Shown here piece by piece: positions 22,927 to 38,982 of a DNA stretch of 53,711 nucleotides (the first letter of the stretch is position 1; each line of letters opens with the position of its first letter). Source of the stretch: a virus (taxonomy: Duplodnaviria > Heunggongvirae > Uroviricota > Caudoviricetes); IMG/VR virus record IMGVR_UViG_3300037488_000489, positions 1 through 53,711 of that record; one strand, 5' to 3'. A model generated the notes under the pieces. That model saw nothing but the letters and a program-made list of their open reading frames with translations. It was not told where the DNA came from and made no database searches. Both the position numbers and the translations under genes were made by a program.

Positions 22927-25900
22927 ATGAACGTTACATGTTCTGCAACTCCTTGCCCAGTCATACTTAACAGCACCTGCGTATTTTACGAGGGTGCTAA
23001 TCTTGTTTATACAGGTATCAACACTAATGATTCCATTCAGACAGCTTTACAAAAAATTGATGAAGCTATTGGTAATGGAGGAGGTGGTGGAACCACTGGA
23101 ACCTCAGGTACTTCTGGTACCTCAGGATCAAATGGTTCATCTGGAACTAGCGGTGCTTCTGGATCTTCTGGAACATCTGGTGCTTCTGGATCTTCAGGTG
23201 TAAGTGGTAGCTCAGGGACTTCAGGTTCATCTGGAACACGTGGTACATCTGGTTCAAGTGGAACTAGTGGTGTAAACGGTGCTGCTGGTACATCTGGAAC
23301 TTCTGGTGCATCTGGTTCAAGTGGAACAAGTGGAACAAGTGGAGCTGCTGGATCAAGTGGAACAACTGGTACAAGTGGTACATCTGGTTCACGTGGTACT
23401 TCTGGTACGTCAGGTGTTAATGGAACAAATGGAACAAGTGGTGTGAATGGCTCAGCAGGTTCTTCAGGAACTGCTGGAAGCTCAGGCACATCAGGTATAA
23501 ATGGTACAAGTGGAACTGACGGTACAAGTGGAACAAGTGGTTCATCTGCAACAAGCGGAACCTCTGGAACAAGTGGAACGTCTGGTATAAATGGTACATC
23601 AGGATCTTCAGGAACTACAGGAACTAGTGGCACATCTGGTGTTAATGGAACTAGTGGAACTTCTGGAGAAAGTGGAACATCTGGAACAAGCGGAACTTCA
23701 GGTGAAAATGGTACATCAGGAACAACTGGTAGTGATGGAACAAGCGGAACGTCTGGAACTTCTGCAACAAGTGGTACATCAGGAACAAGTGGATCTACAG
23801 GTACAAGCGGTTCTTCAGGAACAACAGGTACATCAGGGTCTTCTGGCACTGCTGGAACAAGTGGTGTTGATGGAACATCTGGTACTTCAGGATCTGACGG
23901 TACTAGTGGAACTACTGGAACCTCAGGAACTACTGGAACCTCAGGTACTTCAGGGGAAACAGGAACTAGTGGTACTTCAGGAACATCTGCAACAAGTGGA
24001 TCTTCTGGAACTAGTGGGTCTTCTGGAATAGATGGAACAAATGGTACTAGTGGCACTACAGGTACAAGTGGTAGTTCAGGTACATCAGGAAGTGATGGTA
24101 GTAACGGAACATCTGGAACTACAGGAACAAGTGGTACAAGTGGTGAATCAGGATCAAGTGGTACAACAGGTACTTCTGGATCAAGTGGTACAAGTGGTAC
24201 AGACGGTAGTCATGGAACATCAGGATCTACAGGAACTTCAGGTTCATCTGGAATAGATGGTACTAGTGGAACAAGCGGTACTTCTGGAGCACAAGGTGAT
24301 ACATATAGAACAACATCTACTGATAGCTTTACATTAGGTAACTCTGGTACATTAACAGTTGATACAGGTTTAGCATACTCAGTGGCTCAATCAATAATTG
24401 TGGTTTATGATGCTAATAACTTCCAAGAGTGTGAGGTTACTGCTTATAATCCAGCAACAGGTCAATTAAGTTTTGGTGCCCCTTTTAGAACAGTGGGTTC
24501 AGGCACATATACAAGTTGGATAGTAAACCTTGATGGTGCATCAGGTGGTGATGGTAGCTCAGGTACTAGTGGAACATCTGGAATAGATGGTTCTTCTGGC
24601 ACTTCAGGTACTACTGGTACTTCTGGAACTTCTGGTACTGATGGCTCATCAGGCACTACTGGGACTTCAGGCACAAGTGGCACGTCAGGATCTAGTGGAA
24701 CAACTGGAACTAGTGGTTCTAGTGGAACTTCTGGAACTTCTGGTATTGATGGTACAAATGGTACAAGTGGTACAAGTGGAAGCACTGGTACTTCAGGAAC
24801 AAGTGGTACATCAGGTTCTAGTGGTATTGATGGCACTTCAGGGACTTCAGGCTCAAGTGGTACTTCTGGTACAGACGGAACATCAGGAACTGATGGAACA
24901 TCTGGTACTGACGGTACTTCTGGAATAGATGGAACTTCAGGAACAAGTGGAGTTGACGGAACTAGTGGTACAGACGGTACAAGTGGTACAGATGGTACAT
25001 CAGGAATTGATGGAACTTCTGGCACTTCTGGTTCATCTGGTACTAGTGGAACAACAGGTACAAGTGGAACTTCAGCAACTAGTGGCACCTCAGGAACTTC
25101 TGGTTCTTCAGGAACTACTGGCACCTCAGGTACAAGTGGAACTTCTGGTTCATCAGGTACGTCAGGTGTGGATGGTACATCAGGCTCTAGTGGAACAGCT
25201 GGTACTTCAGGAACTTCTGGTATAGACGGTACATCAGGATCTAGTGGTACATCTGGAACATCTGGCACTTCTGGAACAAGTGGTGTAGATGGAACTAGTG
25301 GAACCTCAGGAACATCAGGAACTAGTGGCACAAGTGGAACTAGCGGTACGTCTGGTACTAGTGGTACAACAGGTACATCTGGTAGCTCTACATTATTATA
25401 TGGTACAAGTTCTAATACAATTACACTTCCTCCTGCAGAAGCTACAACTACAAGCACAACTACAACAGCTGCTCCTGTAGCATATGTAATTGATAATGCA
25501 GCTACAGGTACTTCTGGAGAAGCTTGTGTTGGTTCAACTACAACAAGTACTGTTTATGCTTTACCTGGATATACTGTTCCTATGGTAGGAATGATTTTTT
25601 ATAATAGCCCAAGTTTAACAACACCGTTTGTTGGTTCAGTGGGATGGAGAAAATTAACTAAAGATGGTACTGATTATGCAGTAGAAGTAGATGTTAATGG
25701 AGAACTTACAAACTATATAACTTGTCCTTCTGAATATCCTGTTACTTTTTATTTAAAGAAAAAGGCAGCAACAACAGAAGGATCTGTTAAAATAATGTAT
25801 AGTGTAAATGCTGGATCAACATGGAATGAATGGATTGAACTTTCAAATAGTTTTGTTACTGTTAATAGTTATTCTGGTAGTAGTGGATTATTCATTACTG

Positions 25901-26103
25901 CTGGTTCTAGTTTATTAATTGGTTTATTAGATGGTTCTTCAAATAATTTAAACTTTGGAAAAATTGTAGGTAATCCACCAACAGATTGGGATTCTTATTG
26001 TGGTATTAGTATACCGTATAATGTTGGCCTTATAACATCAACTACTGATTTATATCTAAATCTAGATGTACAAGGTCCTTCGTTTGCAATATGTGGATTA
26101 TAA
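22927..26103 (+). CDS. Tail fibre protein 1 with Ser/Thr collagen-like (G-T-S)n shaft, 1058 aa
   Basis: Cys-containing N-terminal attachment-like domain; G-X-Y runs at 23089-24300 and 24535-25389 separated by a 78-aa domain; Thr-rich linker; two C-terminal beta domains. Confidence 0.8.
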   Translation: MNVTCSATPCPVILNSTCVFYEGANLVYTGINTNDSIQTALQKIDEAIGNGGGGGTTGTSGTSGTSGSNGSSGTSGASGSSGTSGASGSSGVSGSSGTSGSSGTRGTSGSSGTSGVNGAAGTSGTSGASGSSGTSGTSGAAGSSGTTGTSGTSGSRGTSGTSGVNGTNGTSGVNGSAGSSGTAGSSGTSGINGTSGTDGTSGTSGSSATSGTSGTSGTSGINGTSGSSGTTGTSGTSGVNGTSGTSGESGTSGTSGTSGENGTSGTTGSDGTSGTSGTSATSGTSGTSGSTGTSGSSGTTGTSGSSGTAGTSGVDGTSGTSGSDGTSGTTGTSGTTGTSGTSGETGTSGTSGTSATSGSSGTSGSSGIDGTNGTSGTTGTSGSSGTSGSDGSNGTSGTTGTSGTSGESGSSGTTGTSGSSGTSGTDGSHGTSGSTGTSGSSGIDGTSGTSGTSGAQGDTYRTTSTDSFTLGNSGTLTVDTGLAYSVAQSIIVVYDANNFQECEVTAYNPATGQLSFGAPFRTVGSGTYTSWIVNLDGASGGDGSSGTSGTSGIDGSSGTSGTTGTSGTSGTDGSSGTTGTSGTSGTSGSSGTTGTSGSSGTSGTSGIDGTNGTSGTSGSTGTSGTSGTSGSSGIDGTSGTSGSSGTSGTDGTSGTDGTSGTDGTSGIDGTSGTSGVDGTSGTDGTSGTDGTSGIDGTSGTSGSSGTSGTTGTSGTSATSGTSGTSGSSGTTGTSGTSGTSGSSGTSGVDGTSGSSGTAGTSGTSGIDGTSGSSGTSGTSGTSGTSGVDGTSGTSGTSGTSGTSGTSGTSGTSGTTGTSGSSTLLYGTSSNTITLPPAEATTTSTTTTAAPVAYVIDNAATGTSGEACVGSTTTSTVYALPGYTVPMVGMIFYNSPSLTTPFVGSVGWRKLTKDGTDYAVEVDVNGELTNYITCPSEYPVTFYLKKKAATTEGSVKIMYSVNAGSTWNEWIELSNSFVTVNSYSGSSGLFITAGSSLLIGLLDGSSNNLNFGKIVGNPPTDWDSYCGISIPYNVGLITSTTDLYLNLDVQGPSFAICGL
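23089..25389 (+). repeat. 9-bp (GGN ACN TCN/AGY) coding tandem repeats, collagen-like G-X-Y
   Basis: Strict Gly at every third residue; synonymous codons are scrambled; interrupted at 24301-24534. Confidence 0.95.
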
Positions 26104-26133: not shown

Positions 26134-29100
26134 ATGGCTTATTCTAACATAACAATAACTACTCAAACAGGTCTATCTTTTATCACTGGACAATTTATCC
26201 AGCTAATAGCAGATAGTACTGACTATATTTTTGGTCAGGTAGTTTCTTACAATCCTGCTACAGGAGAGTTGGTTTTTACACCAACCAAATCTGTAGGTAG
26301 TGGTAGTTATAACCTTTGGGAAGTAATTGCTTCTGGTTCTCCTGGTGATGATGGTACATCTGGTACTTCAGGTATTAGTGGTAGTGGTGGAACAGGTGGT
26401 ACTTCTGGTACTTCTGGCACCTCTGGTATTGATGGAACAAATGGAACATCTGGCTCATCTGGTACAAGTGGTATAGATGGCACAAGTGGAACTAGTGCAG
26501 TTGATGGTACCTCAGGTACAAGTGGGACAGCAGGAACTGGTGGAACTAGTGGTACTTCAGGCACCACTGGTACTAGTGGTATTGATGGAACAAGTGGAAC
26601 TGATGGTAGTAATGGTACTTCTGGTACTAGCGGCACTTCAGGACAAACAGGTGATCAATTTGCAACAACTTCTACTACATCATTTACATTAGGTACTAAT
26701 GGAGCCATTGTTGTAGGAACACAACTTGCCTATACAGTAGCTCAATCTATTGTAATAGCTTATGATATAAACAACTTCCAAGAATGTGAAGTGGTATCTT
26801 ATAACCCAGCTACTGGGGGATTGATATTTGGCTCTCCAACTAGAACAGTTGGTAGTGGTACATATACAAGCTGGATTGTTAACTTAGACGGTGCTTCTGG
26901 AGGAGATGGTTCTTCTGGAACATCTGGCACAACTGGTACATCTGGTACATCTGGGACTAGTGGCTCTTCTGGAACTGCTGGAACAACAGGTACAAGTGGA
27001 TCAAGTGGAACATCTGGAACACACGGAACTAGTGGTACATCTGCAATTGATGGTACTAGCGGAACAAGTGGCACAACTGGAACTAGTGGAACGGCTGGTA
27101 CAAGTGGAACATCCGCTATTGATGGAACATCTGGTACAACTGGAACCTCAGGAACTAGTGGTACAACAGGTACAAGCGGTACATCTGGCACAAGTGGAAC
27201 ATCTGCTACCAATGGTACAGGTGGTACAAGTGGATCAAGTGGATCAAGTGGTACATCAGGAATTGATGGTACCAATGGTACAAGTGGAACTACAGGAACA
27301 AGTGGAACCTCAGGATCTTCTGCAACTAGTGGAACATCTGGTACAACAGGTACATCTGGAACTAGTGGAACAAGCGGCTCTTCAGGAACTGCTGGTACTA
27401 CTGGTACTTCAGGTACTTCTGCAATAGATGGAACAAGTGGTACATCTGGCACTACTGGTACGTCTGGTAGTGGTGGTACATCAGGTACTTCTGGAACAAC
27501 TGGTATTGATGGTACTAACGGAACTTCTGGTACAACAGGTACTAGTGGTACGTCTGGATCAACAGGTACTTCTGGCACTAGTGGAACTACTGGTGTAGAT
27601 GGAACAAGTGGTACAACTGGAACAAGTGGATCTTCAGGTACAAGTGCTACTGATGGTACAAGTGGAACTTCAGGTACTACTGGAACTTCAGGCAGTTCAG
27701 GATCTACTGGTACCAGTGGTACATCAGGTACTACAGGAACAAGTGGTACTTCTGCAACTGACGGAACTAGTGGAACTAGTGGCACATCAGGTAGCTCAGG
27801 TACAACTGGTACCTCTGGTACATCAGCCACAAGTGGTACAAGTGGAACTAGTGGTTCTACAGGAACTAGTGGTTCATCAGGAACTACAGGAACAAGTGGG
27901 TCTAGTGGAACTGCTGGTACAACTGGTACATCTGGTACTTCAGGTATCAATGGTATAGCTGGTGGTCAAGTGTATTGGATGAATTTATCTAGTGACACAT
28001 CATCTGCTTTTGGTTCTCCTACATATAAGAAACTTTCTTATGATCCTTCTGGTGGTGCACAACAAACTACAACAGTAAGTGTTGCAGCTAATGCAACTGC
28101 TACAATAGCAACCTTTGCTACAGACTCAAATGTTCCTAACTTGACAAGTATACCTGGTGGTAACTGGGGATTCACAGGTCACTTTTTAACAAATAGTGCT
28201 AATGCAGCTTGGAATATTTATTATGAGCTTTGGAAATATACTACAGGTGGCGTTTCTACATTATTAGGTACAACTAATAGTGTATTAGTTACTTTAGATA
28301 ATGTTGTAGTACAACAAATTTATGCTGACTCTTTTATAGCAGCACAATCATTAAACGCAACAGATAGACTTTTTATAAAGGTTATTGCTACTAATACAAG
28401 CAATCAATCACATAATATAATCTTCTACACAGAGGGTACAACCTTTTATTCATACGTACAGACAACTTTCACTTCTCCTTCTGGAACTAGTGGTACAGGT
28501 GGTACATCAGGAACCTCAGGTTCTTCTGGTACAACTGGCACTTCTGGAACCTCTGGAACAAGTGGTAGCTCTGGAACTTCAGGTTCAACTGGTACAAGTG
28601 GTAGCTCTGGAACAACTGGTACATCAGGTTCTTCTGGTTCATCTGGCTCATCTGCAACTTCTGGTACTTCAGGTACCTCAGGTTCAAGTGGTATTGATGG
28701 AACTAGTGGTTCATCAGGTACAACAGGTACATCAGGTAGCTCAGGAACAACTGGAACAAGTGGTACTGCAGGTACTACAGGTACGTCAGGTACATCAGGA
28801 ACCAACGGTACTGGTGGTACGTCAGGTACTACTGGTACATCAGGCTCTTCAGGCTCTTCAGGTACAAATGGTACAGGTGGTACATCTGGTACAAATGGTA
28901 CAGGAGGAACTTCTGGTACAACTGGTACCTCAGGTACAACTGGTACAAGTGGTTCATCTGGTACAACAGGAACAAGTGGAACTAGTGGAATAAACGGTAC
29001 ATCAGGTACAACAGGTACCTCTGGCACCTCTGGTGTTAATGGATCAAATGGTACTTCTGGAACCACAGGAACTAGCGGTTCTTCTGGCACTGCTGGTACG

Positions 29101-31899
29101 TCAGGTATAAATGGTACATCTGGTACCACTGGTACAAGTGGTACTACTGGTACCTCTGGTACCTCTGGAGTAAATGGTTCAAACGGTACCTCTGGTACTA
29201 CAGGAACAAGTGGTACCTCTGGAGCTGCTGGTAGTAATGGTACTTCAGGCTCTTCTGGTGCAGCTGGTAGCAATGGTACTTCTGGATCTAGTGGTATTAA
29301 TGTTGGTTCTAGTGCTGTTATTATTCTTGGAGATGGTGCATTATCTTCTGTAAGATGTGGAGCTGGTAATACAGCAACAGGAAACTGTAGTTCTGTAGTA
29401 GGAGGTCAAAATAATAATGCTACTGGAGAATATTCATTTGTTGGGGGTGGTAATAGCAATGGAGCTTCTGGAACATCTGGAGTGGTAGCTGGTGGTAGCA
29501 ATAACACTGCTAATGGATCCTTTTCAGCAATACTAGGAGGTTCAGGTAATACTGCAATGGGAGCATATTCTGGTATATTTGGATGTAATTTAACAAACAG
29601 TTTATCATGTTCATTCATGGCTAACTGCTTTGTACAACCTAATTTAAGTAATGCTGCAATAGGTGGATGTGCTGTATGTGCAGGACCTAGTGGTGAATTG
29701 ATTGCTTACACAGCTGGTGGTGGTGGAGGTAGTGTAATGGTTGCTGGTAGTGGTGTTTGTTCAATTGTTGGTAATGGATTTAGTAACACAGCAAGCGGAT
29801 ATTGTTCTAGTGCTTTAAGTGGTCTTCAGAATGCTAGTTCTAGCTTTGGATCAGTTATTACTGGTGGTGGATTTAATAGTAACTCTGGAATGTATTCATT
29901 TATTGGAGGAGGTTTCTTTAACTCTGTAATTTCTGGAAGCTGTTCAGTTGTTGCTGGGGGTGGTAACAACTGTGTTTGTTCATCTTATTCAACAATATCT
30001 GGTGGTGTATGTAACAAAATACTTGCAAATACAAACTGTTCTACAATTAGTGGTGGTGCATGTAATATTATTTGTGATAATTCTATTGGTAATTTAATTG
30101 CTGGTGGTAAGTCTAACACTGTTAGTACTTATGCCAACTGTAATGCGATTGGAGGCGGTGAGGCCAACATGATTGGAACAGGTGCAACACATGGTGTAAT
30201 TGGTGGTGGTTCTTTTAATAGCACTGGTAATTACTCAGGCAACAGTACTATATCTGGAGGATTTATGAATAACACTGGTAGTAATGGTACTTCAGGTACT
30301 ATATCTGGAGGAAGCATGAATACTATTAGTGGATATGTAACTGGTGCAACTATAACTGGAGGACAGAGCAATACTGCCTCTGCAAATTTTGCAACTATAT
30401 CTGGATGTAGTATAATAAATTCATTAGCATGTACACACATGGTTAATGAGTTAGCAATCACTTCATTTTCTCCATACGTTGGAATGGGCTGTAGTATAAG
30501 CTTTGATGCATCTGGTAAATTATGTTTAACTGCTGGTGGCGGTGGTGGTTCAAGCATCATGGTTTTAGGAATGGGAGCTGGTTCCACAGAAAGATGTGGT
30601 AACTTTAACACGACAATGGGTAATTGTGCTGCTACTTTAAGTGGTTATTTTAACAACGCTATGGGAGCAACTTCTACAATTGCTGGTGGTGCTAATAATA
30701 ACAATGGTGCAGCTCTTTCATTTATTGGAGGTGGATTTAATAATTTTACTGCTAGTAATTATCCTTTTAATAATACTGGGATGACAATTGGCGGTGGTAA
30801 TAGTAATAAAGTGTGCGTTAGTTATGGAACAATAGGTGGAGGATGGTGTAATACTATTGGAAACGCAGGAAGTTCAGGATATAGCACTATTGGTGGTGGT
30901 AGAAGTAATAATGCAAATGGAGATTTTTCAACAGTTAGTGGTGGATATACTAACACTGCTGGAGCTGAACGTACCTTTATTGGGGGTGGACAGGGCAATG
31001 GAGCATTTGCCCCAGGTGCTGGAGTTTCTAGTGGTTATTATAACAACGCTATGAACTGCCGTGCATATGTTGGTGGTGGTGAGATGAATACTGCTGGTGC
31101 ATGTCATTCTGCTGTTATAGGAGGTACCATGCATAATGCAAATGCTAATTGTTCAGCTATTATAGGAGGTGCTGGTAATAATACTAACAGTGCATATTAT
31201 GGTAGCTTCCCTGGTTATTCATTTGTTGGTGGTGGGCAAACCAATAACAACTGTGGTGGTTGGGGTTTCATTGGAGGTGGTAGTAATAATACTATAGCTG
31301 CAGGTAATATGTTTAGTAGTACTATGAAGTCAGGTATTGTTGCTGGATTTCAAAACTATATAGGTTCAGAAGCGAGTGGTATTCTTGCTGGAACATCTAA
31401 CAACGCAATAGCTGCATCTTCTGCTATTACTGGTGGTTGTTTTAACATGACTATGGGAATAGGAAGCACTGTAAGTGGATGTAGCATAATGTCAATGAAC
31501 TCATTTGTAAACCAGGCTACTTGTTTTGCTGCATCTAATCTAGGTACAGGAGGTGCAATTTGTGCAAACAGTAGTGGAACAATTGTTTTAAGTACATCTG
31601 ATGCTAGATTAAAGTGTTGCATTCAACCTGTTGGATATCAGCTTTGTGATATTAGCAAATTAGTTCCTTCATTCTATGAATTCAATAGTGCTAATAAAGC
31701 TAATGGAGAAGGAAAACAAGTAGGATTCATTGCTCAACAAGTTAAAGACGTAGTACCTGAATCAGTAAAAATGACCTTTAGTGGATACTACTCATTTGAT
31801 TCATCAAAACTAATACCTATTTTAACCAAGGGTGTACAAATTTTGATATCTTGTGTAGATTCATTAACTTTACAATTAGAAGAATTAAAGAATAAATAA
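26134..31899 (+). CDS. Tail fibre protein 2: collagen-like shaft, Cys-rich GGxxN beta-helix heads and C-terminal peptidase S74 intramolecular chaperone, 1921 aa
   Basis: Three G-X-Y segments; GGxxNxAxG repeats; SDARLK...GFIAQQV..VVPESV S74 signature from ~31597; terminal coiled coil. Confidence 0.88.
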   Translation: MAYSNITITTQTGLSFITGQFIQLIADSTDYIFGQVVSYNPATGELVFTPTKSVGSGSYNLWEVIASGSPGDDGTSGTSGISGSGGTGGTSGTSGTSGIDGTNGTSGSSGTSGIDGTSGTSAVDGTSGTSGTAGTGGTSGTSGTTGTSGIDGTSGTDGSNGTSGTSGTSGQTGDQFATTSTTSFTLGTNGAIVVGTQLAYTVAQSIVIAYDINNFQECEVVSYNPATGGLIFGSPTRTVGSGTYTSWIVNLDGASGGDGSSGTSGTTGTSGTSGTSGSSGTAGTTGTSGSSGTSGTHGTSGTSAIDGTSGTSGTTGTSGTAGTSGTSAIDGTSGTTGTSGTSGTTGTSGTSGTSGTSATNGTGGTSGSSGSSGTSGIDGTNGTSGTTGTSGTSGSSATSGTSGTTGTSGTSGTSGSSGTAGTTGTSGTSAIDGTSGTSGTTGTSGSGGTSGTSGTTGIDGTNGTSGTTGTSGTSGSTGTSGTSGTTGVDGTSGTTGTSGSSGTSATDGTSGTSGTTGTSGSSGSTGTSGTSGTTGTSGTSATDGTSGTSGTSGSSGTTGTSGTSATSGTSGTSGSTGTSGSSGTTGTSGSSGTAGTTGTSGTSGINGIAGGQVYWMNLSSDTSSAFGSPTYKKLSYDPSGGAQQTTTVSVAANATATIATFATDSNVPNLTSIPGGNWGFTGHFLTNSANAAWNIYYELWKYTTGGVSTLLGTTNSVLVTLDNVVVQQIYADSFIAAQSLNATDRLFIKVIATNTSNQSHNIIFYTEGTTFYSYVQTTFTSPSGTSGTGGTSGTSGSSGTTGTSGTSGTSGSSGTSGSTGTSGSSGTTGTSGSSGSSGSSATSGTSGTSGSSGIDGTSGSSGTTGTSGSSGTTGTSGTAGTTGTSGTSGTNGTGGTSGTTGTSGSSGSSGTNGTGGTSGTNGTGGTSGTTGTSGTTGTSGSSGTTGTSGTSGINGTSGTTGTSGTSGVNGSNGTSGTTGTSGSSGTAGTSGINGTSGTTGTSGTTGTSGTSGVNGSNGTSGTTGTSGTSGAAGSNGTSGSSGAAGSNGTSGSSGINVGSSAVIILGDGALSSVRCGAGNTATGNCSSVVGGQNNNATGEYSFVGGGNSNGASGTSGVVAGGSNNTANGSFSAILGGSGNTAMGAYSGIFGCNLTNSLSCSFMANCFVQPNLSNAAIGGCAVCAGPSGELIAYTAGGGGGSVMVAGSGVCSIVGNGFSNTASGYCSSALSGLQNASSSFGSVITGGGFNSNSGMYSFIGGGFFNSVISGSCSVVAGGGNNCVCSSYSTISGGVCNKILANTNCSTISGGACNIICDNSIGNLIAGGKSNTVSTYANCNAIGGGEANMIGTGATHGVIGGGSFNSTGNYSGNSTISGGFMNNTGSNGTSGTISGGSMNTISGYVTGATITGGQSNTASANFATISGCSIINSLACTHMVNELAITSFSPYVGMGCSISFDASGKLCLTAGGGGGSSIMVLGMGAGSTERCGNFNTTMGNCAATLSGYFNNAMGATSTIAGGANNNNGAALSFIGGGFNNFTASNYPFNNTGMTIGGGNSNKVCVSYGTIGGGWCNTIGNAGSSGYSTIGGGRSNNANGDFSTVSGGYTNTAGAERTFIGGGQGNGAFAPGAGVSSGYYNNAMNCRAYVGGGEMNTAGACHSAVIGGTMHNANANCSAIIGGAGNNTNSAYYGSFPGYSFVGGGQTNNNCGGWGFIGGGSNNTIAAGNMFSSTMKSGIVAGFQNYIGSEASGILAGTSNNAIAASSAITGGCFNMTMGIGSTVSGCSIMSMNSFVNQATCFAASNLGTGGAICANSSGTIVLSTSDARLKCCIQPVGYQLCDISKLVPSFYEFNSANKANGEGKQVGFIAQQVKDVVPESVKMTFSGYYSFDSSKLIPILTKGVQILISCVDSLTLQLEELKNK
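26335..29301 (+). repeat. Collagen-like G-T/S-S/T coding repeats in fibre 2
   Basis: Segments ~26335-26655, 26890-27966 and 28483-29301, separated by globular domains. Confidence 0.95.
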
Positions 31900-32295: not shown

Positions 32296-32327
32296 AAAAA
32301 AAGCCCAGTTAATTCTGGGCTTTTTTG
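32296..32327. terminator. Bidirectional rho-independent terminator
   Basis: AAAAAAA-GCCCAG-TTAATT-CTGGGC-TTTTTT between convergent genes. Confidence 0.9.
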
Positions 32328-32333
32328 TTTTTA

Positions 32334-33155
32334 TTATTTACTATATCTAAATTGGTCATAGAACCATTTGTAATTGGTATAGATCCAATCTGTTACGTCC
32401 TTACCTAATAACTCTTTGGCCTTACTTCTTACAGGCTCAAGTTTTGTACGAATAACGTGATCCCCAAATGCACCGTACACTTCATCATCTTCTTTAGTAA
32501 CTTGTTCAATATTATCAAAATCATGTTGGTAATACGGTAAGCCTAGATATTCATATATCTTAATCATTGTAGTATCTGGATATAAACACAAGTCTTCAAA
32601 CCTTACAAATAACATTTTATTATTAATTCCTGTTCTAAATATCTCACTAAGTCTTTCAATAGCTAGTCCTACAGGAGGTTGTTGACTCCATATATCTATA
32701 CGCTTAGGTACAGTAGTTCCTTGTCCTTTAGACCAATCTAGAATATCTGATTGCTTCTCTGGATGTTTTCTAAAGTTACCTTCCATAGATGCAAATATAT
32801 CACGTAAGTCTCTCACCATACAAATGATTTTTGGTTCCTCGTTGTGTACAAACTGTAAGAAATCATAGTGTATGCCCCAACCTCTGCTTTTATCTATAAC
32901 ATATTTTTTATCTGTAATAGCATTATAGAAAGCATCCATACCAGATTTAGCAAATGCCTGCCATCCTTTTTTCATAGTTTCAGCATCTTGAGCTTTAAAC
33001 TCAGTAGAGCTTGTGTAATTAGCACGTGCACCAAATATTAATTCAAGTACACCAGATGTAGGTGTAGCATATATATCAGGGTTCTGTGCAAGGATGTTTT
33101 GTAACAATGTAGATCCTGACCTAGGTAAAGAACTTTGATAGAATATTTTTTCCAT
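32334..33155 (-). CDS. PAPS-dependent sulfotransferase, 273 aa
   Basis: 5'-PSB motif SLPRSGSTLLQNIL; 3'-PB motif VRDLRDIFAS; later VRFEDL. Confidence 0.9.
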   Translation of the reverse strand: MEKIFYQSSLPRSGSTLLQNILAQNPDIYATPTSGVLELIFGARANYTSSTEFKAQDAETMKKGWQAFAKSGMDAFYNAITDKKYVIDKSRGWGIHYDFLQFVHNEEPKIICMVRDLRDIFASMEGNFRKHPEKQSDILDWSKGQGTTVPKRIDIWSQQPPVGLAIERLSEIFRTGINNKMLFVRFEDLCLYPDTTMIKIYEYLGLPYYQHDFDNIEQVTKEDDEVYGAFGDHVIRTKLEPVRSKAKELLGKDVTDWIYTNYKWFYDQFRYSK

Positions 33156-34021
33156 TATTTTAAAGATTTAATTACATTGTTTATATTAAATATTTCAGAC
33201 TCATTGTTATAAGGAAATTCTATAAGCTCACCTGATATATTATATTTATTTAAATAAGAGTTCCTTAGTTCAGGAGAGATTGTTTCTGGATTAGCTACAA
33301 TATTTGTATGAATGTCATAACCAAACACATTAGGAACATTCACAACCCATAGTACAGTGGATGGTTTATTCAAAGCAGCTGCAGCATGTTGACCAAAGCT
33401 ATCCATCATTAATCTCTTATCACTTATACTTATAAGTACAAGAAGTGCTCTGAATGTATCAGTTACAGGAAATGTACCTTCATAATTTATTTGATCTTCT
33501 CTTCTTATATGAACAATGTTATATTCATCTTTAAATTCATGTATAACATTCTCAACCACATAACTAGGAATATCTCTAGCCCATGAGTATTTAACATCAG
33601 ATTCAGTTCCACCGTTTGTTTGTAATAGCAGAATAGGTTTATCAGACACAAACTTTTTACTAAAGAAATCTATTTCTCTTTTTGTAAGAAATAGTTCCCC
33701 AACAGTTTTAGTTACAGGTAAGTCATATAGCTTACACCAAGTTTCAATAAGATGTTCTTCTTGTTTGATGTGCTTTGTTTCTAGATAAGGATCGTGTGCA
33801 AACAACATAATCTCTTGATTCTCAATGTACTCCTTATAGAAATAAGCTTGTTGACCAAAGCCATAAGCTCTATCCACATTAGGATTACCTAGAAATACAT
33901 CTGGATAACCAGAGACAACAATTAGTTTACAATCAGGGTACTTAGTTTTTATTGAAGCACACACAGCTGTGGAGGCAATCACCTTGCCTATACCACCATT
34001 AATTTGAAATATTATATTCAT
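33155..34021 (-). CDS. GT9-like (heptosyltransferase-fold) glycosyltransferase, 288 aa
   Basis: N-terminal GGIGK loop, ...FLGNPNV, and C-terminal MDSFGQHAAAAL.KPSTVLW typical of GT-B/GT9 proteins. Confidence 0.7.
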   Translation of the reverse strand: MNIIFQINGGIGKVIASTAVCASIKTKYPDCKLIVVSGYPDVFLGNPNVDRAYGFGQQAYFYKEYIENQEIMLFAHDPYLETKHIKQEEHLIETWCKLYDLPVTKTVGELFLTKREIDFFSKKFVSDKPILLLQTNGGTESDVKYSWARDIPSYVVENVIHEFKDEYNIVHIRREDQINYEGTFPVTDTFRALLVLISISDKRLMMDSFGQHAAAALNKPSTVLWVVNVPNVFGYDIHTNIVANPETISPELRNSYLNKYNISGELIEFPYNNESEIFNINNVIKSLK

Positions 34022-34404
34022 AGTTTACCTTCTTTTTTCATTTGTTCTCTAATTTGTGTAGCAGATATATCATGTATCTCTTGTGGTGGTACATGTTCTA
34101 CAACATCATAACCCACTCCTCTTCCAAAATTTATAGACTCAATATCAGGGATAATCATGAGTCTCACTTTACCTTCTTCAATTAAATCATTTAATGCCTC
34201 TGCTAAGTTCATCATTATTTGATATGCAGACCATGGATTCTTTTCATCCTCTTTAACATCTCTTACACACAATAACACTTTCTTTCCTTGGTTCAATTGT
34301 TGATCAATTAACCATCTATGACCAGCATGCCAAGGTTGCCATCTTCCTATAAACATTGCATACCCATCTGTCTTACGGTTTCCTTCAGCTAAAATATTCT
34401 GCAT
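34018..34404 (-). CDS. HxGH nucleotidyltransferase (cytidylyltransferase-like/NadM-like), 128 aa
   Basis: FIGRWQPWHAGH and C-terminal ISATQIR motifs. Confidence 0.85.
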   Translation of the reverse strand: MQNILAEGNRKTDGYAMFIGRWQPWHAGHRWLIDQQLNQGKKVLLCVRDVKEDEKNPWSAYQIMMNLAEALNDLIEEGKVRLMIIPDIESINFGRGVGYDVVEHVPPQEIHDISATQIREQMKKEGKL

Positions 34405-34826
34405 ATACGTTTGATTTTATCTAAACTGTCTTCAATAGAAGTGTTAGAAGTGTTAATAATTAAATCTACATTATCCATATGAGGAACTTCAAAGTCTTTC
34501 ACTTTAAAGTCATCTCTACCTCTATCTTCTTCATAGATAAGGTAGATCCATTTAACACCTCTGTTTAATTTACTAAGGTACTCTCTAGCTTCTTCATAAG
34601 GATATACTAATGAGAGCACTACATTGTAGTTTTTTATCTTATCTAAATAATGAGCTATATCACTAGCTCTATTTAAATTCTTAATTCTACCTTCTCTACT
34701 ATAGTCTTTATTTTTAAAAAGGTCTCTTAACTCATCTCCATCTATGTGATGAAAGCCTTCTCCTATAAATTTTTTAGCTAGAGTGGTTTTGCCTGATGCA
34801 GGCTGACCAAATAATACTATTATCAT
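34389..34826 (-). CDS. cysC: Adenylyl-sulfate (APS) kinase-like protein, compact, 145 aa
   Basis: P-loop GQPASGKTT, IDGDELR, DYSREGR..NL, VVLSLVYPY and C-terminal FEVP, matching CysC motifs. Confidence 0.75.
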   Translation of the reverse strand: MIIVLFGQPASGKTTLAKKFIGEGFHHIDGDELRDLFKNKDYSREGRIKNLNRASDIAHYLDKIKNYNVVLSLVYPYEEAREYLSKLNRGVKWIYLIYEEDRGRDDFKVKDFEVPHMDNVDLIINTSNTSIEDSLDKIKRICRIF

Positions 34827-37800
34827 AGTAAGTGTTTTATTTTATTAATTACTGTTTCTGCAGATATACCTTTGTGACATTCAAATTGTCTATTAGTTCC
34901 TTTATGTACAGGACACCAATCCCAATCACCTTTATCAAACTTAAAGTTAGGATTATTCCAGCAACCATGACATAAGTTTGTATCTGTAATTCTTAAACAA
35001 TTAGATTGAAACTCATGATCTGCTTCTGTAAAGTTACTAATCATTACAGTTTGCTTACCCATCATCCAAGCTAACCAACTTAATCCTGAACTTAATCCTA
35101 TAAAGAACTTACTGTTCCAAATCATATTGATAGTGTTATCCATAGAAGTGTCTTCTATCTGTGTACAGTTATCAAATGGATTTTTTTCTTTAGATACATT
35201 GTACACTTTGTATCCATGATCAACTAGATAGTTAATCAAAGCTTGCCAACCTTGCTTAGTCCAGAACTTACATCCTGATGTACTATTAGTAGCAATTGTT
35301 ACAAATGTATCTTTGCCACTAAATTTAACTGGCTCGTAAGCAAATCTAGGTCTAATCTCTTTAAATTCTAACCCTAGTATGTTAGTAGCTGCTTTCTGTA
35401 AAGGGATAGTGTTACACAACACAGGTTCTTTATCTTTACCATATCTCCAGCCAACAATGTACTGACCGTGGATGTTGCCCACTACACTTCCTGGAGTGAC
35501 AAACTCAAGCTCTGGATACGCTTTCTCAAATAAGAAGTTCTTATATGTGCTCACTACAACATGACAGTTGTGTTTCTTTCTGAATTCATTGCAATACGGT
35601 ATCCAAGCAATAGTATCACCTAATGATTGACTATCTATACAGATGTATACACGCTTACCTTCATAGTTTAACGTTTCTTCAAAGATGAGTTCTCCATCTT
35701 CCCACACCCTAGCTGTCCACTTGGTAAACCATTGTCTATTTAACTTAACCCAACGGTTGCTAGTAATTGTATTTTCATAATGGCAAACTTCTTTCTCATC
35801 AAAGAATTTGATTAAGAAGTTGCTATCACTATTTCCTGTAATTTCTAAGGTGGGACTCTCTACAAATAGCAAAGATATGTTCACCTTTGTTTTCTTCTTC
35901 TTTTTAGGTTTGATAGGAAGGAACATTATGTTGTTGTACAATTCATCATGTTCTTCTGCAAATCTATTTTCTGGTATATTATAATGAACAATACCTTGTA
36001 TAAACTTTGATCTAACTTCATCTAAGTCAGTATCTATAGGTAGAAGATAGTTGGTAAACATATCTTCATACTGTGGTAGGTTTCTAGCTACAACAGGTAG
36101 AGCATATCCAATTGCTTCTCTAAGTACTAGAGGATTACACTCCCATGTACTATTAAACATAAAGATGTCTGCAGCTTTTAAGAACTCATCTACATCATCT
36201 CTTTCTCCCCACACGGTTACATTACTTGGTAAGTCTTCCATCAATGGTTCCCAATACTCTTTAAAATTAGGGGCTTGATTACCTACAAAATGGAACTCCA
36301 TGTGAGGATATCTTCTAGCTATCTCTATACCTTCCTTTTGATTCTTACCAGGAGTCCATAGTCCTACATTGACAACAGCAGTTTTAAATGGAGCAAAGCC
36401 CAACTTATCTTTTGCAATTATCTTAGATAGAACACCTGGCTGCTTATTCTCTATTGGAAACTGTATCACTTTCTTGTGAGCTTGCATATTAGCAAATGTC
36501 TTAAGATGATATGTTGTACAGAAAGCATATGCTTCTGGCTCATACTTCTTAAGTTCATCAGGATTAAACCAAACATTATGACATGTCTCAACTATTCTCC
36601 AGGTTCTATCAGGAGCATACAATGCATCTAATAACTGAGGGCTTATTTGATTAAAGCTCTCAAACCCTTCTAACATTTCTTCTACATGTACAACATCAAT
36701 ACTATTCTTTTTGATGATGTCAATGAGCTCCATCTTGTTCTCCTCTAGTGTAAAGAATCTATTCTCAGGTACTAATTCTTTGATTTGATTCTTCTGCACT
36801 ACATACACTGGACTGAAGTTGGAATACTCCACTACATAAATTCGTACGAAATTTTGTAATTCTTGCACTCTTTTTAGGAGGAAAGATGGCATCCCACCTG
36901 TAGATAGGTGAGGGGCTAAGAACAATACATTTAATTTATTCTCTGTATGCACCAAAGCATCTATCATACTAAGCATTACACTTGGATCTTTCTCTCCATG
37001 TAAGAATAATAATTTATGTTTATTATCTGGTAATCTTGACCAGCTTCCGTGGTGTTTTCCCCACTCAAGTTTATCGTAGATGTCTTCTATTCTATCTAGG
37101 CTAGCATTAGTATAGATGTAAGGTAAGCCATCTAACACTCCCCACTTCCACAATAGCACGTTAGCTATTGTTTCTTCATGGTATGGAGCATACCACTCAT
37201 GGTTAGCCATCACTTTAGGATGAGTACACATCCAGTACCACTCATCTAAGAAATCAAAGCAGTAGTGGTTAGCTACAAAGTATCCTGTTTGTCTATATCT
37301 CTGTCTGACATATTGATTGACACCAAACAATTCACACGCTGGTGCTTCAAGTGTAGTAGACATATCTTCTCTAGTATCAGCACCACCTCTACCATTGATG
37401 TGTAGATAATCATAGATACCTTCTACAAAGTAAGGGTAGTTCATCTTAGGATACATATCAAAGATGCTATCAATATATTCTGTAGCCACACTGTCACTAT
37501 CTATATAAGCTACTGTATGAGCACAGTTTAATAGAGCATCTTTAACAATCATTGGACGTTCTATCAACAGTCTATAGACATTCTTATCACTTCTATCAAT
37601 GTATTTGTTGATAGAAAGTTTTGGTAGATTAGACTTCCACATAATTGTTGTAGCACCAGGAATATCTGCAGTGGTATCTAATAAATATACATAGATGGGA
37701 AGTTCACTATATCTTCTTATAGAAGCTACACAAGCTTTAACAGTAGGGACATAAGATGCATTTGCATATAAAACGTACGCTTTTTCAGCTTTTATATGCT

Positions 37801-38299
37801 TATTCGTATAATATCCATACAAATGGTTGCTATAAAGTTCAACTAGCTGGGGGTATCTAGTCTTCATAACACTATGAGTCAGGTCCTCCTGGAGATGAGT
37901 TTCATATGTATTACCATACTCCTCACCATCCTGAGCCATCATATATGGCACAGCTACCAAACATTCCTTACCTGCATCTGTTATATCTGTAATAAGCTTC
38001 TGACCTTCTTCAGCTGTAAGATGTTCTAGTATATCTCCTAAGATGATGTAGTCATATTCTGACCAGTCAAACTTACGGATGTCTGCATTATGTACTGTTC
38101 CGTACCAATCTTTCAGTTTGAATTCTTCAATGTAAGGGGCCCAAGCTTCAACAGCATCTATATCATAACCAATATCTTCTAAAAGCTTAGCGTAAGTACC
38201 CTGTCCAGGGCCCACATCTAGTATCTTTTTATGTGTAGGAACATGATGTTCAAAGTATTTCTTAATCTCAGGTTTATAAAAAGTATAACTATTTGGCAT
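34823..38299 (-). CDS. Four-domain enzyme: class I SAM methyltransferase + GT-A (DxD) + GT4 (GT-B) + autotransporter strand-loop-strand O-heptosyltransferase (TibC/Aah-like), ~1158 aa
   Basis: ILDVGPGQG; AYIDSDS; APHLSTGG...DIFMFNSTWECNPLVLREA; SLGDTIAW...GLSSGLSWLAW...CHGCW...DWDWCP...FEC. Start moved from the track's 38320 to the ATG at 38299 because a -7 box lies at 38318-38325. Confidence 0.8.
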   Translation of the reverse strand: MPNSYTFYKPEIKKYFEHHVPTHKKILDVGPGQGTYAKLLEDIGYDIDAVEAWAPYIEEFKLKDWYGTVHNADIRKFDWSEYDYIILGDILEHLTAEEGQKLITDITDAGKECLVAVPYMMAQDGEEYGNTYETHLQEDLTHSVMKTRYPQLVELYSNHLYGYYTNKHIKAEKAYVLYANASYVPTVKACVASIRRYSELPIYVYLLDTTADIPGATTIMWKSNLPKLSINKYIDRSDKNVYRLLIERPMIVKDALLNCAHTVAYIDSDSVATEYIDSIFDMYPKMNYPYFVEGIYDYLHINGRGGADTREDMSTTLEAPACELFGVNQYVRQRYRQTGYFVANHYCFDFLDEWYWMCTHPKVMANHEWYAPYHEETIANVLLWKWGVLDGLPYIYTNASLDRIEDIYDKLEWGKHHGSWSRLPDNKHKLLFLHGEKDPSVMLSMIDALVHTENKLNVLFLAPHLSTGGMPSFLLKRVQELQNFVRIYVVEYSNFSPVYVVQKNQIKELVPENRFFTLEENKMELIDIIKKNSIDVVHVEEMLEGFESFNQISPQLLDALYAPDRTWRIVETCHNVWFNPDELKKYEPEAYAFCTTYHLKTFANMQAHKKVIQFPIENKQPGVLSKIIAKDKLGFAPFKTAVVNVGLWTPGKNQKEGIEIARRYPHMEFHFVGNQAPNFKEYWEPLMEDLPSNVTVWGERDDVDEFLKAADIFMFNSTWECNPLVLREAIGYALPVVARNLPQYEDMFTNYLLPIDTDLDEVRSKFIQGIVHYNIPENRFAEEHDELYNNIMFLPIKPKKKKKTKVNISLLFVESPTLEITGNSDSNFLIKFFDEKEVCHYENTITSNRWVKLNRQWFTKWTARVWEDGELIFEETLNYEGKRVYICIDSQSLGDTIAWIPYCNEFRKKHNCHVVVSTYKNFLFEKAYPELEFVTPGSVVGNIHGQYIVGWRYGKDKEPVLCNTIPLQKAATNILGLEFKEIRPRFAYEPVKFSGKDTFVTIATNSTSGCKFWTKQGWQALINYLVDHGYKVYNVSKEKNPFDNCTQIEDTSMDNTINMIWNSKFFIGLSSGLSWLAWMMGKQTVMISNFTEADHEFQSNCLRITDTNLCHGCWNNPNFKFDKGDWDWCPVHKGTNRQFECHKGISAETVINKIKHLL

Positions 38300-38303
38300 A
38301 ATG

Positions 38304-38334
38304 ATGGTTATTTTGAACAAAATTAGTATATTTG
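38304..38334 (+). promoter_or_regulatory. Rightward promoter ATGGTTAT-N15-TATATTTG
   Basis: -7 box at 38327-38334, upstream of 38359. Confidence 0.65.
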
Positions 38335-38348
38335 TTGTAAATAAACAA
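38318..38348 (-). promoter_or_regulatory. Leftward promoter TTGTTTAT-N15-TAATTTTG for the glycosylation/sulfation operon
   Basis: -7 box at 38325-38318 on the - strand; TTG 20 nt upstream. Confidence 0.7.
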
Positions 38349-38358
38349 CAAAATTTTT

Positions 38359-38727
38359 ATGCAAATAGAAGTAAGTATTGGGGAAGTTGTGGACAAATGG
38401 ACCATCCTTTCCATTAAGGCTTTGAACATTACAGACAAAGACAAACTTAAGAACGTTTTTGTTGAGAAAAACTACTTAAATACAGTGATTGACCCTGAAA
38501 TTCTACACGATCCACTAGTAGATGATCTACTTAAGACAAATAAAGCTCTTTGGGATGTAGAAGACTTGCTCAGAGACTTTGAAAGAGCTAATAGTTTTGG
38601 CCCAGAATTCATTGATTTGGCTAGGTCTGTATACAAATTGAACGATAAAAGAGCACATATTAAAAAAGAAATTAATATTAAGTACTTCTCTGAGTTTGTA
38701 GAGGAGAAATCCTACAAACCATATTAA
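38359..38727 (+). CDS. DUF6165-like helical protein, 122 aa
   Basis: EVSIGEVVDKWTILSIK...LWDVED.LR..E...F...FI.LARSVY.LND.RA.IK..IN pattern. Confidence 0.75.
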   Translation: MQIEVSIGEVVDKWTILSIKALNITDKDKLKNVFVEKNYLNTVIDPEILHDPLVDDLLKTNKALWDVEDLLRDFERANSFGPEFIDLARSVYKLNDKRAHIKKEINIKYFSEFVEEKSYKPY

Positions 38728-38735
38728 AAAAAGAT

Positions 38736-38766
38736 TTGGTTATATCAAATCTTTTACATAGTTTTG
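38736..38766 (+). promoter_or_regulatory. Promoter TTGGTTAT-N15-TAGTTTTG
   Basis: Canonical TTTG-N20-TAnnTTTG, 9 nt before the ATG at 38776. Confidence 0.7.
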
Positions 38767-38775
38767 CTCATACAT

Positions 38776-38982
38776 ATGCCATTGGTAAAGAGACACATAG
38801 CTAAGACTATTAGCTATAGAATAATCAGCACCTTAATAGGTTTCCTAATAATGTGGTGGATCAGTGATTCTATCAAGGTGGGAGCTGCCTTTGGGGTAGC
38901 TGAGCTTATCTACAAGCCTGTTCAATATTACCTTCACGAACGTTTCTGGTACAAGTGGATTAAGTACGGATTGAAGAAATAA
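38776..38982 (+). CDS. DUF2061-like small membrane protein, 68 aa
   Basis: RHIAKTISYRI...YYLHERFW pattern with two hydrophobic helices; start moved to the ATG at 38776. Confidence 0.8.
   Translation: MPLVKRHIAKTISYRIISTLIGFLIMWWISDSIKVGAAFGVAELIYKPVQYYLHERFWYKWIKYGLKK

Follow-up and report, generated by a model that had tools for sequence, protein, structure and literature searches.

A candidate third kind of ATP sulfurylase in a putative glycosylation and sulfation operon of a crAss-like phage

The window examined here, i.e. the whole 53,711-nucleotide stretch of DNA that was analysed, is the first 53.7 kb of IMG/VR record IMGVR_UViG_3300037488_000489, a 117,711-base record, rated 100% complete, of a freshwater crAss-like phage with a GC content of about 33%. 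The collagen-like tail-fibre genes of this phage are directly followed, on the opposite strand, by five translationally coupled minus-strand genes (38320 to 32334), the ends of neighbours overlapping by 1-16 nt. In operon order, these encode a 1165-amino-acid (aa) methyltransferase/glycosyltransferase fusion (34823-38320; Methyltransf_23/11, Glycos_transf_1, and Glyco_transf_9 matches), a 145-aa adenosine 5'-phosphosulfate (APS) kinase-like protein (34389-34826; APS_kinase, PF01583), a 128-aa HxGH nucleotidyltransferase (NT; 34018-34404; a weak match to CTP_transf_like PF01467, E 6.6e-5), a 288-aa GT9-like candidate without any Pfam match (33155-34021), and a 273-aa sulfotransferase of the type that uses 3'-phosphoadenosine 5'-phosphosulfate (PAPS) (32334-33155; Sulfotransfer_3 E 3e-18, Sulfotransfer_1 E 3e-12). 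Successive genes overlap by 4 nt (1165-aa fusion and kinase), 16 nt (kinase and NT, 34389-34404), 4 nt (NT and 288-aa gene), and 1 nt (288-aa gene and sulfotransferase). Diverging from the operon start is a pair of plus-strand genes for a 122-aa DUF6165 protein (38359-38727; PF19662, 36.8 bits) and a 72-aa DUF2061 small membrane protein (38764-38982; PF09834, E 5.6e-15, 56 bits against a cut-off of 23.1). All open reading frames (ORFs) reported in an initial annotation of this DNA were recovered at their coordinates, including the 16-nt kinase/NT overlap, and its observation that the window holds no Sat or CysDN extends to the whole 117,711-base phage, in which neither Sat (PF01747) nor any PAPS_reduct-family gene (CysD/CysH) was detected. 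To our knowledge, Sat and CysDN are the only two established kinds of sulfate-activating enzyme. This operon probably equips the phage for glycosylation and sulfation, synthesis of the sulfate donor included; judging from comparative sequence evidence, we favour the NT as an ATP sulfurylase of a third kind, derived from NadM.

The 145-aa protein matches PF01583 over residues 2-89 (model positions 4-97; E 7.5e-9, 36.2 bits against a cut-off of 21.1). A profile built from 35 phage homologues returned APS kinases for all of its top 25 PDB matches (best E 8e-17), and no NadR match at E <= 0.001. The AlphaFold2 (AF2) model of the protein (pLDDT 92.9) superposes on APS kinases with a Foldseek TMq of 0.72-0.86, the top 22 matches being APS kinases or kinase domains and the APS-kinase-like C-domain of fungal ATP sulfurylase. 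Across 54 non-redundant phage homologues, the P-loop, D29-G-D31, Arg34, Tyr42 (Phe in one), Arg47, and Asn50 are invariant or nearly so. The DGD motif aligns with the LDGD of Mycobacterium tuberculosis CysC, and Arg34, Tyr42, and Arg47 align with its Arg483, Phe492, and Arg497; in that enzyme, these residues and the LDGD bind APS at its ribose, phosphosulfate, and adenine (PMC4373884). In human PAPSS1, each aspartate of the DGD is essential (PMC8528679). The phage protein thus has the fold, P-loop, LDGD, two phosphosulfate-binding arginines, and stacking aromatic of CysC (M. tuberculosis 4bzp, P. chrysogenum 1m7g). It differs in length (145 aa against ~175-200) and in its lid, from which all phage homologues lack some 18 residues in the region equivalent to M. 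tuberculosis CysC 552-581 with Arg559, Lys562, and Phe576, and it scores under the NCBIfam equivalog cut-offs. We read the 145-aa protein as a trimmed APS kinase that probably still works. A complex prediction for kinase and NT scored 0.00, which carries no information either way.

The NT is tied to this kinase by gene order. Linkage was counted in 80 related viral loci bearing the NT: the kinase lies directly upstream in 78, and the NT sits at a contig edge in the other two, a pairing far beyond chance. The NT family comprises more than 6000 relatives of similar length (1103 cluster representatives), and about 100 longer relatives are of fusion size, most of them with PF01583. Fusions occur in both orders, namely NT followed by APS kinase (NT-APSK; P0253, P0270, P0279, P0313, P0315, P0360) and the reverse (APSK-NT; P0280), and the fused APS kinases are full-length (PF01583 E 1e-40 to 1e-69, model positions 1-152 of 152). 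Cultured phages with the fused form include Xylella phages Sano, Salvo, and Bacata and Stenotrophomonas phage DLP_6; a megablast search of cultured phages with the operon region as query gave no match. The fused gene lies at 5142-6318 of the Bacata locus (L001) and at 4593-5324 of the DLP_6 locus (L002), with motifs kept, and the DLP_6 fusion has DAD in place of DGD. Other NT architectures include an NT joined to DUF6717 (P0287, 249 aa), a PF01883 (FeS-assembly SUF-like) domain followed by an NT (P0131, 237 aa), and a 315-aa NeuB-containing protein with a partial NT match (P0205). Neighbourhoods and fusions of the homologues bring both CysC and sulfotransferases, the association on which the initial annotation had staked its sulfurylase proposal.

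Bacterial genomes extend this pattern. The phyletic sample consisted of 401 genomes, all of 0.5-2.1 Mb, from the phylum of one NT-bearing metagenome-assembled genome (MAG), which NCBI labels Acidobacteriota; from their size, the genomes are probably Patescibacteria-like. Weaker NT matches covering only the N-terminal half of the profile were set aside, on the assumption that they are ordinary nicotinamide mononucleotide (NMN) adenylyltransferases (NMNATs). A strong full-length NT was found in 13 of the 401 genomes, and all 13 have an APS kinase, fused or adjacent to the NT in 11 and on a different contig in the other two. Sat was found in none of these 13 genomes, against 17 of 35 other genomes with an APS kinase (Fisher p 0.0016), and a CysD-like gene in four, so that nine show neither; the genomes sampled are MAGs of unknown completeness, which makes these absences soft evidence. 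Among all genomes with an APS kinase, the NT was present in 9/17 that have neither Sat nor a CysD-like gene, versus 4/31 of the rest (p 0.0055). The CysD-like genes themselves (~270 aa, well under the CysD equivalog cut-off) occur in 45 of the small genomes, 29 of which have no APS kinase, and they are therefore a poor marker of sulfate activation in this phylum. Four genomes (G254, G396, G107, G227; loci L097-L100) carry an operon with overlapping starts that encodes CysQ (Inositol_P), an NT-APSK fusion, and a canonical CysC. In this operon, sulfate adenylylation is the sole step without a known gene. The fused kinase-like domain of these four operons has DGS, DGG, or DSK in place of DGD, and fusions without a second CysC retain DGD. 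Fungal Sat carries a dead, regulatory APS-kinase-like C-domain and works beside a separate kinase, while other Sat-CysC proteins are truly bifunctional. Loss of the DGD beside a separate CysC mirrors this fungal pattern, an analogy that would fit a sulfurylase role for the NT.

The NT itself holds the motifs GRWQPWHAGH, VRD (Arg48), NP, FGRGVGY (Gly94-Arg95), and ISATQIR (Arg119). Its closest relatives by both sequence and fold are NadM-type NMNATs (M. jannaschii MJ0541, 1f9a; M. thermautotrophicus, 1ej2), with which it has the GRxQPxHxGH and ISxTxxR nucleotide-binding motifs in common. The AF2 model (pLDDT 91.8) gave weak Foldseek matches, and its exhaustive structural alignment returned NMNAT 1f9a (Z 10.5, rmsd 3.0 over 110 residues, 26% identity), PPAT (Z 10.3), and NadR (Z 8.6-8.9). 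The sequence alignment with NadM extends over just the first two thirds of the NT, which has VRD instead of the IGS that follows strand 2 and carries a new GR motif. The family also has 8 residues between DIE and GYEV where 1f9a has 33, so that about 25 are deleted from a segment (DIE marking strand 4) that we take to be the NMN/nicotinamide pocket of NMNATs. Gly94 is invariant in the family, and Arg95 and Arg48 are near-invariant and new relative to 1f9a; a pair of such arginines next to the HxGH site would fit binding of a small anion. Across 90 diverse members, the HxGH, the ISxT..R, and these arginines are all near-invariant. These features suggest a protein that may work like Sat while descending from an NMNAT, in a family that belongs to neither.

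An alternative reading, in which kinase and NT would act as a NadR-like nicotinamide riboside kinase and NMN adenylyltransferase in NAD+ salvage, perhaps against an NAD-depleting defence, draws on the same likeness to NadM and NadR and on the NMNAT label that source annotations give to many NT homologues. It also draws on Xylella phage Bacata, in which the fusion gene overlaps a COG3236/NADAR gene, and on a survey that described phage fusions of a NadR-type NT with a P-loop kinase, with co-occurrence of NadV (PMC9503650). We consider salvage very improbable. NadV (PF04095) was found neither in the source phage, nor in three other NT-bearing phage records (jumbo phages included), nor in Bacata, and the NT has lost the stretch that NMNATs have between DIE and GYEV. 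The NT falls far under every curated NMNAT cut-off (NF002243, 36 bits against 127; TIGR01527, 31 against 181), and the kinase is APS-kinase-like, with phosphosulfate-binding arginines and without a NadR match at the threshold given above. The gene context is one of sulfate activation, not NAD, and links to CysQ, CysC, DUF2061, and sulfotransferases make no sense for NAD metabolism.

Sulfation is a recurrent setting of the NT family. In the source phage, the 273-aa sulfotransferase scores above family cut-offs (Sulfotransfer_3, PF13469, 67 bits; Sulfotransfer_1, PF00685, 47 bits), matches phrog_27463 (E 1e-43), and gives a weak match, far under the model cut-off, to the carbohydrate sulfotransferase model NoeE (E 3e-9). 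Its translation holds PRSGST and RDLRD...S, which we take to be 5'-PSB-like and 3'-PB-like PAPS-binding motifs, respectively. A homologue is present in 20 of the 80 NT-bearing viral loci. Fused forms of the NT adjoin three different sulfotransferase families in unrelated phages and bacteria: a 126-kb phage has the gene order GT2, GT2, GT9, [APSK-NT], GT1, GT8, two methyltransferases, and Sulfotransfer_1/3 (GT, glycosyltransferase); in another phage, APSK-NT is directly followed by Sulfotransfer_2; one contig reads GT1, GT2, Sulfotransfer_3, [APSK-NT]; and in a bacterial MAG an NT-APSK adjoins sulfotransferase-GT fusions. One further fusion lies inside a polysaccharide and nonulosonic-acid cluster.

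The remaining two operon genes would supply the sugar. The 1165-aa protein combines an S-adenosylmethionine-dependent methyltransferase domain (~aa 16-115), a GT-B Glycos_transf_1 domain (~638-758; GT1/GT4), and a Glyco_transf_9-like domain (~999-1106), and homologues occur in 17/80 related viral loci; the true start of its gene may be the ATG at 38299. The C-terminal ~170 residues of this enzyme comprise the GT9-like match and a Cys/His-rich tail (CHGCW...C...H...C.H). The 288-aa protein belongs to no Pfam family and matches phrog_8954 (function unknown). Among the related viral clusters that a feature search brought up, one has PF01075 on 45% of its members; BLASTP against a phage GT9 gave nothing. 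The protein is probably a GT9-like GT-B glycosyltransferase, an assignment that serves as a lead only. Its gene is found in 21 of the 80 loci, 16 of which also have the sulfotransferase, so that the two travel together.

These glycosyltransferases bear on a second alternative, which the initial annotation had raised in the form of an HldE-like activity: the NT would adenylylate or cytidylylate a sugar phosphate (as HldE or HldC) or glycerol phosphate (as TagD), and the kinase would act on that substrate or on the resulting ADP-linked product, providing a donor for GT9-like enzymes. GT9-like domains do recur beside the kinase-NT pair, HIGH-family cytidylyltransferases including HldC are among the fold matches of the NT (Z 5.7-7.7, with HldC 5x9q at Z 5.7, below the NMNATs), and the arginines of the kinase could in principle hold a diphosphate in place of a phosphosulfate. 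Yet 59/80 loci carry the pair without the GT9-like gene, the kinase family matches APS kinases before all else and keeps their APS-binding residues, and NT relatives are fused to canonical CysC and placed in CysQ-CysC operons. The source phage also has no GmhA-like (SIS_2) or PfkB gene, although the host could supply such genes. We therefore regard a sugar- or glycerol-phosphate substrate as improbable.

DUF2061 provides an additional link between the kinase-NT pair and sulfate activation. This domain is encoded in 40/80 kinase-NT viral loci, usually directly downstream of the NT, and in another phage it directly follows an APSK-NT fusion. The statement in the initial annotation that DUF2061 is often adjacent to cys genes in Bacteroidota proved true: it was detected in 9/151 sampled Bacteroidota, and in 4 of these 9 it is located ~0.7 kb from cysD. 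One of these genomes (G566; L132 3862-4716) has a cysD-cysN-cysQ operon that opens with the gene for a 284-aa DUF2061-APS kinase fusion, and another Bacteroidota genome has the order CysH-OsmC-DUF2061-CysC-CysD-CysN-CysQ. Genes for UDP-glucose dehydrogenase and epimerase follow in the same G566 operon, an indication that the PAPS made there serves polysaccharide sulfation. A search for longer DUF2061 proteins returned DUF2061-only ones, and it was the genome neighbourhoods that revealed the CysC fusion; a literature search found nothing on DUF2061 function. DUF2061 links the phage kinase-NT-DUF2061 trio to sulfate activation, and within this trio the NT stands at the place of bacterial CysDN. 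A two-helix domain of ~52 residues that is found fused to CysC, DUF2061 resembles a membrane-bound partner or anchor for APS kinase more than a supplier of sulfate; the latter role, suggested in the initial annotation, is left without support here.

Of the two established enzymes, CysDN of the Bacteroidota operons occupies the same position as the NT beside CysC and DUF2061. Its fold is unrelated: CysD, a PP-loop ATP pyrophosphatase, works with a GTPase, and the phage module has none. Sat, Sat-CysC, and PAPS synthases (Aquifex 2gks, human PAPSS1 1x6v, fungal 1i2d) catalyse the reaction proposed for the NT and belong, as it does, to the HIGH superfamily. Like Sat, the NT family is found fused to APS kinase in either order and includes a variant with a degenerate kinase-like domain beside a separate CysC. 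Unlike Sat, it has no PF01747 match and no PUA-like N-domain, and a catalytic unit of ~110 residues against ~220. The Sat motifs QxRNPxHxxH and GRDHAG, seen in 3 and 6, respectively, of the Sat ORFs that were fetched, are replaced in the NT by GRWQPWHAGH and FGRGVGY. Two sub-threshold hints of Sat, a PF01747 match (E ~1e-4) on two NT-APSK fusions and an extension of the Sat-CysC model NF004040 by ~50 residues into the NT C-terminus, were too weak and were not used. Given that it lacks any specific likeness to Sat, the NT, if a sulfurylase, would be of independent origin. The description of the NT in the initial annotation, a NadM-like protein from the superfamily of Sat, thus holds for its nearest relatives, which are NadM NMNATs, and fails if taken to mean a trimmed Sat: this candidate was ruled out, as aligning the NT family with a Sat alignment in hhalign gave a probability of only 30%.

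Several observations, besides the shortened kinase lid and the soft absences in MAGs, weigh against a sulfurylase. The best solved relatives of the NT by profile are NMNATs (E 3e-13, over positions 17-88 only), and ATP sulfurylase 1v47 aligns with its model at superfamily level only (Z 8.0). Complete phage genomes carry the kinase-NT pair without a clear sulfotransferase: neither a sulfotransferase nor NadV was detected in Xylella phage Bacata or Stenotrophomonas phage DLP_6, and two 320-kb jumbo phages with the pair give only weak sulfotransferase matches. The latter fall on several ORFs of ~210-240 aa (E 5e-5 to 4e-3; G005:C1 at ~131.6, 189.6, and 226.7 kb; G010:C1 at ~239.5 kb), possibly a divergent family of small sulfotransferases. 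No paper on an ATP sulfurylase of NadM-like type came up in literature searches. In the likely host phylum, APS can be made without the phage, as CysD and APS kinase are present in a Bacteroides control genome, and Bacteroidota commonly have CysDN and CysC. Finally, one MAG has an NT-APSK gene divergently adjacent to cysD-cysN, and another has a CysD-like gene 4.4 kb from the NT; in these MAGs, the NT is either redundant or doing something else.

The last points, along with the absence of specific NT-Sat similarity, are what would be expected if the module makes PAPS from APS provided by the CysDN or Sat of the host, with the NT as a nucleotide-binding, regulatory, scaffolding, or by-product-handling partner of the kinase. 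This is the most serious of the rival explanations, and we still consider it unlikely. Catalytic motifs and new arginines that stay near-invariant across 90 members argue for an active enzyme, neither Sat nor a CysD-like gene was found in nine of the 13 genomes with a strong NT, and the CysD-like genes of that phylum are mostly found in genomes without an APS kinase. For the minimal ATP sulfurylase put forward in the initial annotation, the comparative evidence is favourable: the NT is recurrently fused to APS kinase, including in CysQ/NT-APSK/CysC operons, it occurs in sulfation contexts with three sulfotransferase families, its strong matches never coincide with Sat in the genomes sampled, and it has lost the NMN segment. 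It is on these grounds that we read the NT as a candidate sulfurylase.

Under this reading, the NT would adenylylate sulfate (ATP + sulfate -> APS + pyrophosphate), and the 145-aa kinase would then phosphorylate the 3'-OH of APS (APS + ATP -> PAPS + ADP), pulling the unfavourable first step forward. From PAPS, the 273-aa sulfotransferase would sulfate a sugar built by the 1165-aa fusion and the GT9-like protein, probably carried by the neighbouring collagen-like fibres, or by another virion or cell-surface acceptor. DUF2061 may keep the kinase step at the membrane or organise it there, in line with its fusion to CysC in Bacteroidota. More broadly, the balance of evidence inclines us to see this family (~110-130 residues), which abounds in environmental phages and also occurs in small-genome bacteria, as an independently evolved third class of ATP sulfurylase, a NadM-type scaffold with its NMN pocket deleted. 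Together with a trimmed or fused APS kinase and DUF2061, it would make up a PAPS synthase smaller than any known, which phages would use to sulfate virion or host-surface glycans. If this is true, a third, four-fold smaller sulfurylase would alter the way in which genomes are read for sulfate assimilation and sulfation, since NT genes are now labelled NMNAT or cytidylyltransferase, and it could explain APS kinases that seemingly have no sulfurylase partner. Phages would be bringing along a complete sulfate-donor pathway, phage-driven glycan sulfation, probably on collagen-like fibres, would become testable, and DUF2061 would gain a first functional handle. The cultured phages with the fused form make such experiments feasible.

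Convergent with the operon on the plus strand are the genes of two collagen-triple-helix fibre proteins, one of 1058 aa (22927-26103) and one of 1921 aa (26134-31899) with a C-terminal Peptidase_S74 intramolecular (endosialidase-type) chaperone domain; both are obvious candidate acceptors of a sulfated glycan. A bidirectional intrinsic terminator (32297-32326), with a 12-bp stem between A and T runs, closes both the minus-strand operon and this convergent fibre block. At the other end of the operon, the DUF6165 gene adjoins DUF2061 in the source phage and co-occurs in 10/80 related loci. In addition to the fibre proteins, the window genes around the operon encode giant virion proteins, and further phage neighbours include an endolysin, a UvsX-like recombinase, and a ribonucleotide reductase.

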